From a virus (Duplodnaviria; Heunggongvirae; Uroviricota; Caudoviricetes), in IMG/VR virus record IMGVR_UViG_2909314774_000001: a stretch of 64,000 bases of DNA. One strand, given 5' to 3'. The translations under genes and the position numbers were made by a program. Below the pieces are notes generated by a model. The model did not search any database. It worked only from the letters and a program-made list of their open reading frames with translations, and was not told the origin of the DNA. Every line of letters starts with the position of its first letter. The stretch's first letter is position 1. Positions 2,510 through 57,724 of the stretch are shown piece by piece.

Positions 2510-3292
2510 GTGCCAATTGTCGGTGTTCCCGGTTGGATTGGGTCTTCGGCTGTCAGTGTGACAGGCCAGAGATGGATGAGTGCGGCTCGAACGGCGGTGC
2601 AACTGCCAGCGGCTGGTTCAATGTCTCAAATGGCCGGGCGATCTAAAGAAGTTCAGTACAGCATCGGTGCGAATCATAACTACAACAAAGACACACTGAT
2701 CAACTATTTAAAATCCCAGGGGGCGACGCCAGTCGTTGTTACCATTACAGGGGATCTGGTGTCGTCCAGTAGCGGCGTGCCATGTTTAGATTTCCCGAGT
2801 TCACTTACCAACTCTTATATCAGCCTTGTAATCAACGCAGGTGTGACTGTCTATGGACGCGGTGGCAATGGTGGTAGTAACGCTGCCGGTGCTGCTGGTG
2901 GTAACGCAATTAATAATGGCATCGGTACACGCTTGCGTATTACGAATAATGGTGCAATCGCTGGAGGTGGCGGCGGCGGTGGCGGCGGTAACAGGGGTAA
3001 ACTAATATTTGGTGGTGGCGGTGGTCGCCCATTCGGTGCTGGTGGGTCTTCCTCTCATATGAGTTCCGGTGCAACTGCTGGTACTATTTCCGCTCCTGGT
3101 AAAGGATCTGTTGGTGAGGGGTCTCTTAGTGCATATACAGGCGGTTCGGGTGGTAATGTCGGTGCTGCTGGAGGAAGATGTAATACTCAAGGTAACGGTA
3201 CAGAATATAACGGCGGAGCAGCTGGTAAAGCCGTAACTGGCAACGCGCCTACATGGACTAAAGCTGGGGCAATTTACGGCGCTCATGTGTAA
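2510..3292 (+). CDS. gp38-like tail fibre adhesin with glycine-rich motifs
   Basis: N-terminus VGVPGWIGSSAV..TGQRWMS and repeated poly-Gly tracts (GGGGGGGGGN, GGGGG) resemble T2/S16-type gp38 adhesins. Start moved to in-frame GTG 2510, which has AAGGAG 8 nt upstream; the ORF-track ATG at 2453 overlaps the previous gene. Confidence 0.55.
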   Translation: MPIVGVPGWIGSSAVSVTGQRWMSAARTAVQLPAAGSMSQMAGRSKEVQYSIGANHNYNKDTLINYLKSQGATPVVVTITGDLVSSSSGVPCLDFPSSLTNSYISLVINAGVTVYGRGGNGGSNAAGAAGGNAINNGIGTRLRITNNGAIAGGGGGGGGGNRGKLIFGGGGGRPFGAGGSSSHMSSGATAGTISAPGKGSVGEGSLSAYTGGSGGNVGAAGGRCNTQGNGTEYNGGAAGKAVTGNAPTWTKAGAIYGAHV

Positions 3293-16424: not shown

Positions 16425-16499
16425 GATGGTGTAGCTCAGCGGTAGAGCAGTTGGCTGTTAACCAACTGGTCGGTGGTTCGAATCCACCCACCATCGCCA
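16425..16499 (+). tRNA. tRNA-Asn (anticodon GTT)
   Basis: Hand-folded cloverleaf: acceptor GATGGTG/CACCATC, anticodon loop CTGTTAA, T-loop GGTTCGAATCC, 3' CCA encoded. Confidence 0.85.
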
Positions 16500-16504
16500 A
16501 TTTA

Positions 16505-16591
16505 GGGGAGTTAGTCCGTAGGGGCAGCGGGGTAGACTGTAAATCTACTGTCATTGCGACTCGGGTGGTTCGACTCCATCACTCCCCACCA
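16505..16591 (+). tRNA. tRNA-Tyr (anticodon GTA), class II with long variable arm; D-arm non-canonical
   Basis: Acceptor GGGGAGT/ACTCCCC, anticodon arm GTAGA-CTGTAAA-TCTAC, T-loop TTCGACT, CCA encoded; the D-arm would not fold canonically by hand. Confidence 0.6.
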
Positions 16592-16595
16592 AATT

Positions 16596-16671
16596 GCCGG
16601 TTTAGCTCAGTTGGTAGAGCGCCTGCCTTGTAAGCAGGATGTCAGCGGTTCGATCCCGTTAACCGGCACCA
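16596..16671 (+). tRNA. tRNA-Thr (anticodon TGT)
   Basis: Acceptor GCCGGTT/AACCGGC, D-arm GCTCAGTTGGTAGAGC, anticodon loop CTTGTAA, T-loop TTCGATC, CCA encoded. Confidence 0.85.
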
Positions 16672-16762
16672 ACACAACAGGTAAGAGCATTGGGCGAATC
16701 GGCGATACTGACCACAAGCCCGTAAATCGATAGAGTCAGACCAGTGCTCTTACCGTTGTGAG
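16672..16762. repeat. Long imperfect hairpin C (candidate structured RNA)
   Basis: Arms CAACAGGTAAGAGCATTGG / CCAGTGCTCTTACCGTTG, ~47 nt loop; begins right after tRNA-Thr. Confidence 0.5.
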
Positions 16763-16807
16763 GAAGTGCAGCTCTTTGAAGCAACCAGAAGATAAGCATC
16801 TGGCTTC

Positions 16808-16892
16808 ACAACACAACGATAAGATCATTACGGTTAATCGTCGTTCATGTGCACAATGACTGGTCGAAAGGTAGTGATCTTACCGTTGTGAT
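16808..16892. repeat. Long imperfect hairpin D (candidate structured RNA)
   Basis: Arms CAACGATAAGATCA / TGATCTTACCGTTG, ~48 nt loop. Confidence 0.5.
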
Positions 16893-16990
16893 GAATGCAC
16901 AGGCTGATGTGCCGCAACTACAGTAGTGCGCGCTTTGCGGGGCTTGCTACAACCCTGTGTCGGAGTTCAGCACCGACCATCACAATAGCT

Positions 16991-17074
16991 GGAGAGTAGG
17001 GAGCATGGTGCTCAAGCGGTCTTGAAATCCGTCCCATTGTGCAAACGATGATGGTTCGATTCCATTACTCTCCG
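16991..17074 (+). tRNA. tRNA-Ser (anticodon TGA), class II; D-arm and anticodon stem imperfect
   Basis: Acceptor GGAGAGT/ACTCTCC with discriminator G and CCA; anticodon loop CTTGAAA; T-loop TTCGATT; long variable arm. Confidence 0.55.
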
Positions 17075-17075
17075 C

Positions 17076-17157
17076 CAGACACAGCGTTGAGCGGTTTGGC
17101 CTTTTAATCAACCAGATTAAGACTCCGCTAACATAAACCAGACCGCTCAACGCTGTG
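17076..17157. repeat. Long imperfect hairpin E (candidate structured RNA)
   Basis: Arms ACAGCGTTGAGCGGTTTGG / CCAGACCGCTCAACGCTGT, ~38 nt loop; directly after tRNA-Ser. Confidence 0.5.
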
Positions 17158-28380: not shown

Positions 28381-28652
28381 AAGAATTATGGCGCTTGTTG
28401 AGGAAGTCACTCCTCTTACGCACTTTGTTTTGCCATGCCGGCAGTTAGCTTCTGCCTTTGACTATTCATGCGGCAACCCCGCATTTCGCCACAATGGGCA
28501 ATTCACTTTTATGGAATAAACTGGCCGTTGTGTCGATTTAATTAGCATGGCCTTACCATGCTAATTTATTCAACTTGTACAATCCTGCAAATCTATCCAC
28601 TCAGGCTTACACCGTCTTCGTTATTGTAGAAATGAGGATCATCAGCGTTGAA

Positions 28653-28868
28653 TCAGCTTAGAGCAATGACATTTGCTGCTGCTGGGCCTTTAGCCCCATT
28701 CTCGATAGAGAATTCGACCTGCTGGCCTTCTTCCAAAGTGCGGAAATTATTACTCTGAATTGCCGAAAAATGTACAAAAACATCTTTACTGCCATCAGCA
28801 GGAGAAATAAAGCCAAAGCCTTTATCAGAGTTAAACCATTTTACTAAACCAGTCATTTTATTAGACAT
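28653..28868 (-). CDS. Cold-shock protein (CspA family)
   Basis: [23 protein letters not shown]...VFVHFSAIQ... closely matches the E. coli CspA-family sequence; start set at the conserved MS.KMTG. Confidence 0.95.
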
Positions 28869-29197
28869 AGATATTACCTTCTTAATTTTGTGAGCCACAT
28901 AGTGCGGCGAGAATTTGATCTGTATAGATTGGGACTTACTTAGGCACTTAAGGAGGAGACTCACGAAGAAGGGAAATCAGAAGATAACACTGAACTGAGA
29001 CTGCTTTACTAAAACTGCTTACATAAGGTCTGTCTTGCAAACCAACGATGCTATTAACGCATACCCCTTCTTTTCATGCAACCTTTATTTTTCAAAGATA
29101 ACTAATTTTTGTCACCATTGGTTTAGTAAACGTTAACGAACCAGACGATGCCAGACACCTTTACAGAGAACAGATGCCCGCCAATTGGCGGGCATCA

Positions 29198-55536: not shown

Positions 55537-56130
55537 ATGATTGCAGCCGAAAAAATCAAACAGCGAAAGCGCGACAACTCTCTTCGTGACCTCTGGAGAA
55601 CACCTGACTGGCTGTTTTCTGCCATTCAACGTTATCTTGGAGTGACATTTGATGTTGACGTTGCCTGCAACAAGGACAATGCAAAGCTGCCTAATTTCAT
55701 AGGCGTTGAGCGTGATGCTTTGAAATCTGAATGGGGACAGCCAGGTACAATTGCCTTCCTCAATCCACCCTACTCCAAAATCTCCCCCTGGATTGATGCG
55801 GCTATACGTGAGCAGGCTCGCGGAGTTACAACAGTGATGCTAATTCCTCAATCCCTAGATACAAAGTGGTATGAGCGTGCAACAGAGTGTGCGAATGAGA
55901 CGATTATTCTGTCTGGTGGCCGCGTAGCGTTTGTCGAGCCTGACGTCAATCTGGGTCAGGTAGAAGTAAACATCAACCCAGGTGGCAGTATGCTCGTTGT
56001 TTTTCGAGGATTCTGTCAGGACGCTGGGCACTCTATAAGCAAGATCCCTTTGGACGTCATGAAAAGTCTGGGAGGGTATGATCCTGCGAATGTGATCAGG
56101 AAAAAAAGACCATCAAAGAAGGCTGCTTAG
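55537..56130 (+). CDS. DNA N6-adenine methyltransferase (phage Dam-like)
   Basis: Catalytic motif NPPYS with the upstream W.TPDWLF segment typical of small phage adenine methyltransferases. Confidence 0.7.
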   Translation: MIAAEKIKQRKRDNSLRDLWRTPDWLFSAIQRYLGVTFDVDVACNKDNAKLPNFIGVERDALKSEWGQPGTIAFLNPPYSKISPWIDAAIREQARGVTTVMLIPQSLDTKWYERATECANETIILSGGRVAFVEPDVNLGQVEVNINPGGSMLVVFRGFCQDAGHSISKIPLDVMKSLGGYDPANVIRKKRPSKKAA

Positions 56131-56151
56131 TTTGTTCTGGCGTCTGTAATT

Positions 56152-56226
56152 AGCCTGCTTCTGTATATATAAATAACTACATATTAATTATTAATATACG
56201 GAAGCAGGCTGTTTTGTATCAGAGAC
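56152..56226. terminator. Long palindromic element / putative terminator (twin of 8729-8791)
   Basis: Stem AGCCTGCTTC...GAAGCAGGCT around an AT-rich loop containing TGTATATATA, followed by GTTTTG. Confidence 0.5.
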
Positions 56227-56291
56227 TCCAGACCTGAACATCACTACAGAATCCACTAGAACCCCTTCCCAGACGCTTTAAAATCGATTTT

Positions 56292-56546
56292 ATGAATCAC
56301 TTTAAGGAAACTAACATGTCATACCCGACTAATGTCGTTGCGCTCGTAGAGAGCGATTTTCTGGCCCAGGCCCGTGAAATGATGAAAGATCGCGAGCAGG
56401 CTTTCAACTTGTACGAATGGGCAATTAAGTGCTTGCATCTTGGGGAGCATCGCGAACTTGTTGAACAGCTTTTAGGTGAGTTGATTAACGAGGTGTTTGC
56501 CTTGAATGTTCAACTACATGGTCGAGAAAATAATCAATCGAAATGA
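56292..56546 (+). CDS. Hypothetical protein
   Basis: 84-codon ORF. Confidence 0.4.
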   Translation: MNHFKETNMSYPTNVVALVESDFLAQAREMMKDREQAFNLYEWAIKCLHLGEHRELVEQLLGELINEVFALNVQLHGRENNQSK

Positions 56547-57130
56547 TAGATAAGTACAAACTATTCATAAAGTGAATTGTAAGTGCTAAGATCTGATAGT
56601 TTCCAGTCGTAGACTGGAGACTCGACCTGATGGGTGGGGGTAAGCGTCACTGGCGTCAGGTTTAAAAAAGCTCACTACCAGCGTAGAACCGGTGCCGTTT
56701 AGGTGTCGGGGAAGGGGGAACCAAAGTGAGCGGAGACAAGGGTCACTTTATGATTGTCGAGTCTGGGGTGTTTCGAGAGGTTGAATCCAGTACTCCCCTT
56801 CATAAAGTGTGGGAAGATCTCGGTTCTGGGGTGCTGTCATCCATAACTTCCCAAGTCTAAGCTGGCAGTAGACTTAGGCCATAACTTTTCAGGTTATGAA
56901 ACGACCAGGTTGGTGAGGGATTTTTATACTCACCTCCCTGGGAGAGTATTACCTGAAAAGACAACCTCTCACTTCGTTCGAGGTGAACTTCACTCACTTC
57001 GTTCGTTCAGTTCAGGTTTATAAAAACCTGTTCTGGGAAGTAATTTGTTTATTTTAATAATTATTAACACGCACGCGTGTGCGCACGCGCGAGGAAAAAA
57101 ATCGGCGCGGCGCTTGATTCAGGAGTTTAT

Positions 57131-57724
57131 ATGACGACGAAGACACCAGCCCGATCGCAAGAAAAAACTCGCAAAAAAGCCAAAAACAAAAATTCTCCCC
57201 GCACCAATTCCACAACGCCTGTCGTAGAGTTCAATCCCCAGCTTAAAACCGTGAAAATCTTCAGTGATGGCTCTTGCCTTAAAAATCCGGGTGGCCCGGG
57301 CGGTTACGGTATAGTTCTCCAGTATCGTGGTGAGGAACGCGAGTTCTCAGATGGTTTTCATAGCACCACCAATAACCGCATGGAGATGATGGGGGCACTT
57401 ATCGGGCTGGAGCGTTTGAAATATCCATGCAACGTTATTTTGCACTCTGATAGCCAGTATCTGAAAAACGGCATGACACAGTGGATGAAATGGTGGAAAC
57501 GCAATGGATGGGTGACTTCTGACAAAAAACCGGTAAAGAATGTTGATCTGTGGAAGCGTCTGGATGAGGCTGCAAGTCGACATAATGTTCGCTGGAAGTG
57601 GGTTAAAGGTCACGCCGGGCATCGTGAAAATGAAATATGTGATCGACTCGCGAAGATCGCAGCTTTTTCCGCAGCAGATATGCCTCACAAGAAAGATATT
57701 GGTTTTGTTTACAACAAGCAGTAA
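57131..57724 (+). CDS. rnhA: Ribonuclease HI with basic N-terminal extension
   Basis: RNase H motifs (FSDGSC...[25 protein letters not shown]); start moved to ATG 57131 (AGGAG 6 nt upstream) to leave the GC-alternating tract upstream. Confidence 0.85.

Follow-up and report, generated by a model that had tools for sequence, protein, structure and literature searches.

The interval at positions 56,547 to 57,130 of a 64,000 nt stretch of tailed-phage DNA (IMG/VR record IMGVR_UViG_2909314774_000001), hereafter the window, was characterized. By its sequence the stretch belongs to an SSU5/pHCM2-type phage-plasmid. The interval is probably a gene in its own right, encoding a highly structured non-coding RNA of about 450 nt that is transcribed from the + strand and specific to this type of phage-plasmid. 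A probability of roughly 60% was given to this reading on the comparative sequence evidence. The RNA probably acts with a protein partner during replication or early development, although confidence in this part is much lower than for the gene. The original prediction, made from the letters of the window, had suggested a structured RNA or a cis element such as a second origin or a pac site. Strong support for the first of these now comes from the promoter, which is conserved, from covariation across the 18 helices of a + strand fold, from a lack of coding potential and from conservation above that of the neighboring genes. The predicted gene is as follows.

56598 to 57055, + strand: predicted structured non-coding RNA of about 450 nt, based on conservation, covariation and folding energy.

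The interval matched 12 phage records, among them Salmonella phage SSU5 and Escherichia phages Cyrano and PhiR41_1. In PLSDB it was found on 686 plasmids of Klebsiella, Escherichia, Enterobacter, Salmonella, Citrobacter, and Cronobacter, mostly IncFIB and non-mobilizable. It was present in 231 of 5,426 complete E. coli genomes and RefSeq held no annotation under it in any of the 231. Copies lie on the minus strand of S. Typhi CT18 pHCM2 (NC_003385.1 86255 to 86759), K. pneumoniae HS11286 pKPHS1 (NC_016838.1 103842 to 104353) and the E. coli element CP090273.1 (94765 to 95348). The interval is bounded on the left by the stop codon (56546) of a small open reading frame (ORF; 56292 to 56546) and on the right by the ATG of the RNase HI gene rnhA (57131). 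The surrounding + strand block is made up of nucleotide-metabolism and replication genes encoding RNR, ThyX, DHFR, a DnaQ-like exonuclease, Dam, and RNase H.

No ORF of 60 or more codons was found inside the interval, as had been stated in the original prediction. The longest ORFs lying wholly inside 56546 to 57131 ranged from 30 to 46 amino acids. Two longer ORFs were present only at the right edge, a 53 amino acid minus-strand ORF with a TTG start (57054 to 57215) and a 215 amino acid ORF with a GTG start (57077 to 57724) which is an upstream in-frame extension of rnhA. In phage Cyrano a hypothetical protein of 44 amino acids with a GTG start is annotated at the position of window 56726 to 56860, which would make part of the interval a small protein gene. 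This ORF is disrupted by 1 and 2 nt indels in Klebsiella and Salmonella Concord relatives and substitutions across it follow pairing covariation and not codon periodicity. The small protein was ruled out on the frameshifting indels, and the chance that any unannotated protein gene of this kind explains the interval is extremely small.

Conservation was determined from an alignment of the window with eight plasmids from different genera. The core, from approximately 56614 to 57013, was 85 to 100% identical in pairwise comparisons across elements of six genera (E. coli, Klebsiella, Salmonella, Enterobacter, Citrobacter, and Cronobacter), and the subsegment from 56814 to 57013 was 98 to 100% identical. 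The flanking Dam gene, small ORF and rnhA had identities of 50 to 85% and every flanking gene was below the core. Judged from these alignments, the interval is non-coding sequence under stronger constraint than its neighbors.

The + strand of the interval folded with an energy of -169.6 kcal/mol (z = -4.9) compared to -138.3 kcal/mol for the minus strand. The close relatives were too alike to test the 3′ half of the fold, so distant relatives were sought by synteny. The loci and contigs gathered are given here as L-numbers, the distant ones having been found through homologues of the small ORF. The gap following the small ORF was 520 to 700 nt in each fetched contig. Diverged copies of the element, 67 to 82% identical, were present in L320, L322, L317/L318, L319, and L326 to L328. 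A structure alignment of 13 sequences was used and the consensus was predicted by RNAalifold, giving 110 pairs in 18 helices.

56599 to 56621 (5′ hairpin), 56624 to 56662, 56670 to 56731, 56744 to 56809, + strand: helices of the 5′ part of the RNA (RNAalifold).
56810 to 56853, 56855 to 56879, 56880 to 56898, 56905 to 56941, and 3′ hairpins at 56964 to 57037, + strand: helices of the 3′ part of the RNA (RNAalifold).

A standard pair was formed in 97.0% of the alignment cells, compared to 91.2% in shuffles and 31 to 50% in slid controls. Compensatory double changes were found at 39 pairs, compared to 14.0 ± 2.6 in shuffles (0 of 500 as high) and 4 to 8 in slid controls. Helices of the 3′ half also covaried (56810–53, 56829–42, 56855–79, 56880–98, 56905–41, and the stem around the second copy of a 13-mer described below). 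The GGTGAG/CTCACC hairpin highlighted in the original prediction (56912–17/56929–34) has kept its pairing through compensatory changes. A long-range helix between approximately 56733–43 and 57030–40 had poor support and is unreliable. The covarying pairs included many G-U intermediates on the + strand and almost no A-C. These intermediates and the more stable + strand fold indicate that the folded molecule is the + strand, co-oriented with the genes. A one-strand fold maintained by compensatory substitutions is the generic mark of a non-coding RNA gene.

One seemingly 79%-identical relative (L321, a contig from Logan SRR8137545) was left out of the structure alignment. Nearly every C in this public assembly is read as T, as if bisulfite-converted reads had been assembled as genomic ones, and translation of its gene fails to give the query protein. 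Being a C-to-T converted assembly, it would yield false G-U covariation. Two wrongly extracted rows of one other alignment were likewise disregarded.

A sigma-70-type promoter was predicted directly upstream of the RNA.

56564 to 56592, + strand: promoter with -35 TTCATA (56564–69), a 17 nt spacer and an extended -10 TGcTAAGAT (56584–92).
56545 to 56566, no strand assigned: degenerate copy of the palindrome (GATA)GGTAAGTACTTACC(TATC), directly after the small ORF stop and overlapping the -35 box.

In the alignments the elements TT(T/C)A(C/A)N, a spacer of 17 to 18 nt and TGnTAA(N)AT were kept in all clades while the sequence of the spacer varied. The 67%-identical relatives have TTTACC, 17 nt and TGcTAACAT. 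The window copy, with 8 of 12 hexamer matches plus the TG, was not called by a simple promoter scan. Transcription is predicted from the sequence to start at approximately 56597 to 56600. The 5′ stem-loop which follows differs entirely in sequence between lineages and its pairing is always kept.

Two GATC (Dam) sites were noted, at 56589 to 56594 and 56818 to 56823. The first overlaps the -10 of the promoter in the E. coli lineage and is not conserved in the others, which have TAAAAT, TAGAAT, or TAACAT as the -10. The second lies in an invariant internal loop of the RNA. At the site of the degenerate palindrome the relatives carry GGTAAGTACTTACC. The palindrome, of 14 to 22 bp, occurs in 14 copies in the window compared to 1.6 expected, with copies at 3288, 8873, 15656, 20680, 23340, 30749, 34269, 40021, 44706, 55509, 57724, and 62703. 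Almost all follow the stop codon of a + strand gene by 0 to 45 nt. A phage regulator could use the palindrome as its operator, or it could act in RNA as a hairpin or processing site between cistrons.

The direct repeat of the original prediction, CACTTCGTTCG, was confirmed to occur exactly twice, at 56970 to 56980 and 56995 to 57005, and both copies are invariant in all close relatives. They represent two copies of a module, CTCRCTTCGYTCG, whose complement is a mini-hairpin with a GNA triloop.

56964 to 57014, + strand: double mini-hairpin module, with hairpin 1 at 56964 to 56984 and hairpin 2 at 56984 to 57014.
56968 to 56980 (in hairpin 1) and 56993 to 57005 (in hairpin 2), + strand: the 13-mer CTCACTTCGTTCG, from the sequence.

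On the minus strand the 13-mer reads CGAA-C-GAA-G-TGAG, a GAA-triloop mini-hairpin with tandem G.A flanks. In the window copies (A-C-GAA-G-T) the C-G pair closes the GNA triloop and the next Watson-Crick pair is A-T and not the canonical G-C. The flanking stems of the module, helices 17 and 18, were 97 to 98% paired in the structure alignment and helix 18 had compensatory changes. Nearest-neighbor folding cannot rank the two strands of the module as bonuses for GNA triloops and sheared G.A pairs lie outside the energy model.

The 3′ end of the RNA and the three features of the DNA which follow it are listed here.

57013 to 57056, + strand: 3′-terminal hairpins and then a U-rich tail, UUUGUUUAUUUU; putative terminator and RNA 3′ end.
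57041 to 57066, no strand assigned: AT-rich spacer with many indels, approximately 26 bp here and 20 to 45 nt in relatives, poorly conserved in sequence.
57067 to 57091, no strand assigned: alternating purine-pyrimidine (CG/CA) tract of 25 nt, Z-DNA- and cruciform-prone.
57091 to 57101, + strand: polypurine run GAGGAAAAAAA, directly after the GC-rich tract.

The 3′ hairpins can form as alternatives, CAGGUUU/AAACCUG (57013–30) or CCUG-UUC-UGGG (57027–37). The first is the GGTTTATAAAAACC hairpin of the original prediction. This hairpin is real, and its stem (57013–19/57024–30) shows UA to GC covariation and keeps pairing through compensatory changes. The second covaries across clades as CCUG/UGGG, CCCG/UGGG, and ACCCA/UGGGU. 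The U-rich tail begins 6 to 7 nt past the stem of the 3′ hairpin. The segment from 57008 to 57060 folded with z = -4.2 compared to z = -1.0 for 57058 to 57135, which places the end of significant RNA structure at approximately 57055.

The alternating tract is downstream of the folded RNA and has no significant RNA fold of its own. It is strictly alternating over 25 nt, as had been predicted, and no other such run in the window is as long; in 200 shuffles the longest run averaged 16.1 nt and never exceeded 23. Its length is 14 to 29 nt in the main family, with frequent indels, and 8 to 9 nt in the divergent clade. On the sequences compared, it is conserved as a property and not as a sequence. 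The motif GCGAG(G/A)AAAAA of the polypurine run is kept in the main family, L320, L326, and L328 and is shortened in L322 and L317. The breakpoint at which rnhA is replaced in some lineages lies just past the polypurine run, and the spacer, tract and run are thus part of the RNA unit and not of rnhA. The features stressed by the original prediction are real but peripheral to the RNA, the repeat being a module at its 3′ end and the tract lying beyond the fold.

The interval could also be read as an element that acts purely as DNA and makes no functional RNA, for example a pac or cos site, a site bound by protein for partition or regulation, or a hotspot of recombination. This would suit the extreme sequence conservation of the 3′ half, the repeats, the palindromes and the Z-DNA-prone tract, and the module hairpins, being fully Watson-Crick, could extrude as a cruciform. 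Such a reading is highly improbable. A conserved promoter lies immediately upstream, and the covariation of the 18 helices has G-U intermediates on just one of the strands, a pattern not produced by sites in double-stranded DNA. The core has no second copy in the genome. Nothing was found in support of the proposed pac site, and the terminase and portal genes are elsewhere on the element, at approximately 63 to 67 kb of CP090273.1 where the interval is at approximately 95 kb, about 30 kb away.

The genes on either side of the RNA differ in their constancy.

56292 to 56546, + strand: small ORF of PHROG family phrog_5343 (E = 8e-53), 84 amino acids from the first ATG of which 76 are conserved.
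57131 to 57724, + strand: RNase HI gene rnhA (PF00075, E = 2e-44), the usual downstream neighbor.

The phrog_5343 ORF was immediately upstream of the element in every locus examined. The rnhA gene is replaced by unrelated genes in L008, L009, L328, L317, L319, and L322, with the RNA retained. These replacement lineages comprise Citrobacter pA_CitB, Klebsiella pSC7, Buttiauxella, and the divergent clade. The downstream gene of the divergent clade encodes a 200 amino acid DUF7557-like protein with no similarity to RNase H, and other replacements are hypothetical proteins and an opposite-strand helicase. The constant neighbor of the RNA is the upstream phrog_5343 and not rnhA. The link to RNase H implied by the title of the original prediction is thus not an obligatory one.

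The position of the RNA directly upstream of rnhA in most members, and in the same orientation, could otherwise have indicated a long 5′ leader or cis-regulatory RNA (riboswitch- or thermosensor-like) of the downstream gene. No canonical terminator separates the RNA from rnhA and GC-rich hairpins lie near the rnhA ribosome-binding site. This is very unlikely, as the downstream gene varies by lineage while the RNA is kept, and obligatory coupling to rnhA was ruled out on these grounds. The RNA is also far more conserved than rnhA, the segment at the ribosome-binding site has no significant structure and no riboswitch family was matched. A gene-specific leader is argued against since the unit is kept where unrelated genes replace rnhA. 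The leader, DNA-only and small protein readings are each contradicted by a direct test.

In the favored reading, that of an independent RNA gene, the promoter at 56564 to 56592 would start a transcript whose first structure is the 5′ stem-loop of variable sequence and kept pairing. The transcript would then run through approximately ten helices held by compensatory substitutions, reach two hairpins displaying the 13 nt module CUCACUUCGUUCG and finish with a short hairpin and U-rich tail, which may serve both as a terminator and as protection of the 3′ end. A discrete transcript ending at approximately 57050 would be produced, presumably expressed together with the replication and nucleotide-metabolism block. 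The folded RNA itself would be the selected product. Loops and internal loops that are nearly invariant (GGGGAAGGGGGAACCAAAG and GAUCUCGGUUCUGGGGUG among them) may be binding surfaces for a protein or nucleic-acid partner and the most obvious candidate is the always-adjacent small helical protein phrog_5343. The AlphaFold model of this protein has three helices (mean pLDDT 80). It had no fold match in the PDB and the small ORF had no Pfam family. The possibility of a Rop-like RNA-binding protein was considered and set aside, the model being a generic helical bundle with no PDB match and hence uninformative. Complementarity of the interval to the rest of the 112 kb phage-plasmid was at most 13 to 14 nt, which is chance level, and no antisense target was indicated.

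The Rfam scan suggested in the original prediction gave no family match. At gathering thresholds Rfam 15 (including GOLLD, ROOL, RNAI, riboswitches, tmRNA, RNase P, and group I and II introns) identified only cspA and tRNA, both elsewhere in the window. At E values up to 10 the region from 56100 to 57300 gave only chance microRNA-like matches far below threshold. A literature search for a non-coding RNA or transcriptome of SSU5 or pHCM2 returned no useful match. When a profile of the element was searched by nhmmer against the 228 other loci, matches were confined to the 13-mer module. The body of the RNA is therefore without detectable relatives outside the SSU5 family, and the module is a unit of its own, set into the 3′ end of an RNA that is specific to the family. 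On sequence comparison the RNA is a new family among the large structured RNAs of mobile elements, with no matching database entry or paper found.

The loci L323 to L325 differ from the rest. At 1726 to 2437 the small ORF (P0019) is represented by a homologue with 70% identity, behind which come a different non-coding region of approximately 700 nt and then RNase H. Only GGTGTCGGGGAA is common to this region and the window RNA, and the 13-mer module is absent. The region may be a replaced or very diverged analogue of the RNA.

Several points weigh against an independent gene acting as RNA. The deep covariation comes mainly from a single divergent clade (L317, L322), with L320 and L328 in addition, and independent covariation events are thus modest in number. 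The promoter, start site and 3′ end are all predictions. No canonical intrinsic terminator was called at the 3′ end by the consensus scan and, as the 3′ hairpin and U tract fall below the terminator consensus, read-through into the downstream gene is possible. The near-invariance of the 3′ half exceeds what the fold needs and hints at an added constraint, which might be an extended surface for interactions or a function as DNA. Inheritance of the alternating tract and polypurine run along with the unit is not explained by a purely trans-acting RNA. Finally, all pairs in the module hairpins are Watson-Crick, and these hairpins could just as well form in the minus strand or by cruciform extrusion.

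The module was followed beyond the SSU5 family. IMG/VR was scanned for two 11-mers 8 to 30 nt apart. Matches were found in the SSU5 family and in unrelated contigs, in each case as a short variable stem around CTCACTTCGTTCG, a spacer and a second copy. The stems around the module elsewhere are variable and covarying. In T4-like phages the module sits in long spacers between genes, either adjoining uvsW or immediately upstream of uvsY. In the cultured Pseudotevenvirus EC-W2 and approximately 60 RB43/RB16-like phages it occupies the spacer between gene 24 and uvsY, in the order of two purine-strand copies, 85 bp of AT-rich sequence, two pyrimidine-strand copies, a consensus sigma-70 promoter and uvsY. 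By analogy with T4 this spacer is the map position of ori(uvsY), alias oriF.

L329 2374 to 2540 (Enterobacter phage EC-W2, MN508622.2 12521 to 12687), L084 9026 to 9251, L101 1890 to 2111, and L098 1100 to 1141: inverted module pairs in T4-like phages.

The inverted pairs of T4-like phages flank an AT-rich core of 85 to 150 bp. The EC-W2-type intergenic sequence was found at 2 to 4 places per genome in the approximately 60 RB43/RB16-like phages and could represent candidate origins, bidirectional terminators or insulators, or MITE-like cassettes.

Wider surveys comprised a scan with relaxed criteria and another restricted to one genome per species. Among the matches listed, the module was present at more than 120 loci in very diverse phages and in more than 120 bacterial and archaeal genomes of many phyla, in the latter usually as short tandem intergenic arrays. 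Its general form is CTC-R-C-TNC-G-Y-TCG, with the complement CGA-R′-C-GNA-G-Y′-GAG. Positions 4 and 10 were Watson-Crick partners in more than 98% of approximately 450 instances among those matches, and in viral loci they were G:C in 177, A:T in 33, and non-Watson-Crick in 3. The loop is TTC with variants TCC, TGC, and TAC, that is GGA, GCA, and GTA on the complement, following a GNA rule. The commonest form elsewhere is CGA-GCGAAGC-GAG, which contains an exact d(GCGAAGC). The divergent SSU5-family clade retains the module with R:Y and loop variants. Gene 3′ ends faced the purine strand in 37 cases compared to 18, a modest bias only. A simple intrinsic terminator was rejected as the role of the module since there is no general downstream T-run.

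The arrays of bacteria and archaea (L195 to L314) contain hairpins with the loop (C)TCACTTCGTTCG or CTCGCTTCGCTCG and come from many phyla. Examples are L257 801 to 1000, L206 6475 to 6875, and L267 3289 to 3640, while those of L204 and L221 are beside tRNA genes. A frequent flank is aGATTSC...GSAATGACA. In haloarchaeal arrays the 3′ acceptor sequence of a tRNA gene makes up the first stem. Rfam identified nothing relevant on the T4-like contigs or on eight bacterial array loci, and literature matches to CACTTCGTTCG, CTCGCTTCGCTCG, and their variants were confined to primers.

The position of the module in T4-like phages bears on the possibility that the unit is a lytic replication origin working through a structured primer RNA and supercoil-sensitive DNA elements. 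In such an RNA-primed (R-loop) origin, similar to ColE1 RNA II or T4 oriF/oriG, the promoter would fire through the structured region and a persistent hybrid would form at the AT-rich/GC-rich segment. RNase H would trim the hybrid at the polypurine run, leaving a primer for rightward DNA synthesis, and the mini-hairpins on single-stranded DNA would be signals for priming or primosome loading. The setting fits, as the unit lies inside the replication and nucleotide-metabolism block of an element with DnaE, primase, ligase, and several AAA-family ATPases of its own. So does the order of promoter, approximately 450 nt of structured RNA, AT-rich spacer, GC-rich alternating tract and polypurine GAGGAAAAAAA, which is co-inherited without rnhA. 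Precedents exist in T4 oriF/oriG (PMC3016281) and ColE1 RNA II (PMC3167613). GCGNAGC mini-hairpins are reported from phage and plasmid replication-initiation sites and N4 hairpin promoters and bind single-stranded DNA-binding protein poorly (PMC13037366). The T4-like module flanks an AT-rich core upstream of uvsY or adjoins uvsW.

Such an origin is the main rival to the independent RNA gene but is considered unlikely. RNase H is not a constant neighbor, and the folded RNA seems to end in a hairpin and U-rich tail ahead of the AT-rich/GC-rich segment. The AT-rich spacer is just 26 bp or so and the alternating tract is 8 to 9 nt in the divergent clade. GC skew had no inflection at the interval, which is weak evidence either way. 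Minimal T4 origins of approximately 100 bp suffice with no elaborate or conserved RNA fold (PMC3016281). No RNA I-like match and no antisense promoter inside the RNA were found, and the module is common in bacterial and archaeal intergenic arrays which cannot all be origins. The primosome assembly site of ColE1 (pBR322 sequence) has the purine hairpin version on the displaced strand, which here would have the pyrimidine version. If the unit were an origin, the CTCRCTTCGYTCG mini-hairpin would be an unrecognized cross-domain module marking sites of single-strand initiation or insulation.

Other structured elements were observed in the window. A cspA-type thermoregulator with a cold-shock gene is carried by the phage-plasmid (Rfam RF01766, 183 bits; 28628 to 29046, minus strand), as is a cluster of four tRNA genes (Asn, Tyr, Thr, and Ser; 16425 to 17077, + strand). 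Directly after the Dam gene, at 56131 to 56237, there is a long AT-rich perfect hairpin, GCCTGCTTCTGTATAT...ATATACGGAAGCAGGC, followed by TGTTTTGT and kept in relatives. The upstream operon probably terminates at this hairpin, which was also the source of the spurious microRNA-like Rfam matches.

The best conserved of the non-coding sequences in this region of the element thus appears to be a previously unannotated structured RNA of approximately 450 nt. It is large and well supported enough to be entered into RNA family databases. SSU5/pHCM2-type phage-plasmids are common in clinical Enterobacteriaceae and include pHCM2 of S. Typhi. Phage-plasmids as a class are often carriers of resistance genes. 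The RNA offers a handle on their biology, whether in replication control, in lysis-lysogeny or in a ribonucleoprotein with phrog_5343. The wide distribution of the 13 nt module in intergenic arrays across domains has, to our knowledge, not been described before, and the module CTCRCTNCGYTCG could inform work on priming signals, terminators, insulators and non-B DNA.

The RNA was compared to known systems. It resembles GOLLD, ROOL, and HEARO in being several hundred nt in length with many covarying helices, carried by phages or mobile elements, non-coding, of unknown function and conserved above the neighboring genes. Unlike them it has no Rfam match (E up to 10), its hosts are phage-plasmids of Enterobacteriaceae, it is always paired with phrog_5343 and it ends in a mini-hairpin module.

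The RNA II primer of ColE1 undergoes processing by RNase H, after which its extension exposes a primosome assembly site (PMC3167613). The unit is similar to ColE1/pMB1 RNA II in having a promoter approximately 500 bp upstream of a purine-rich run, a long folded transcript, RNase H at hand and GNA-type mini-hairpin sequences nearby. It differs in that there is no homology, no RNA I partner (Rfam) and no minus-strand promoter in the 5′ part of the RNA. The module lies upstream and not downstream of the putative switch point, and a RepA/IncFIB replicon is already present on the SSU5-type element.

T4 oriF and oriG consist of a promoter and an AT-rich unwinding element at which an R-loop forms; in all likelihood the viral RNase H processes this R-loop, and the primosome loads on the displaced strand (PMC3016281). 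The likeness here consists of an AT-rich segment downstream of a promoter, the nearby gene for a viral RNase H and the module at uvsY/uvsW in T4-like phages. In contrast to T4, approximately 400 nt of covarying structure comes first and the AT-rich segment, of approximately 26 bp, is approximately 450 nt past the promoter.

The d(GCGNAGC) mini-hairpins are known from the complementary-strand origins of G4, St-1, and alpha3, from RSF1010 ssiA and from the promoters of the N4 virion RNA polymerase (PMC13037366). The complement of the 13-mer likewise has a GAA triloop closed by C-G, and the commonest form elsewhere holds GCGAAGC. The window copies differ in having A-T as the second pair (ACGAAGT), and the module is a longer 13-mer with flanking CGA/GAG (tandem G.A possible) and a variable outer stem. 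Its pyrimidine strand is the one transcribed in the SSU5-type element. Tandem intergenic arrays in bacteria and archaea are not described in the mini-hairpin review (PMC13037366) and set the module apart from the sites covered there.

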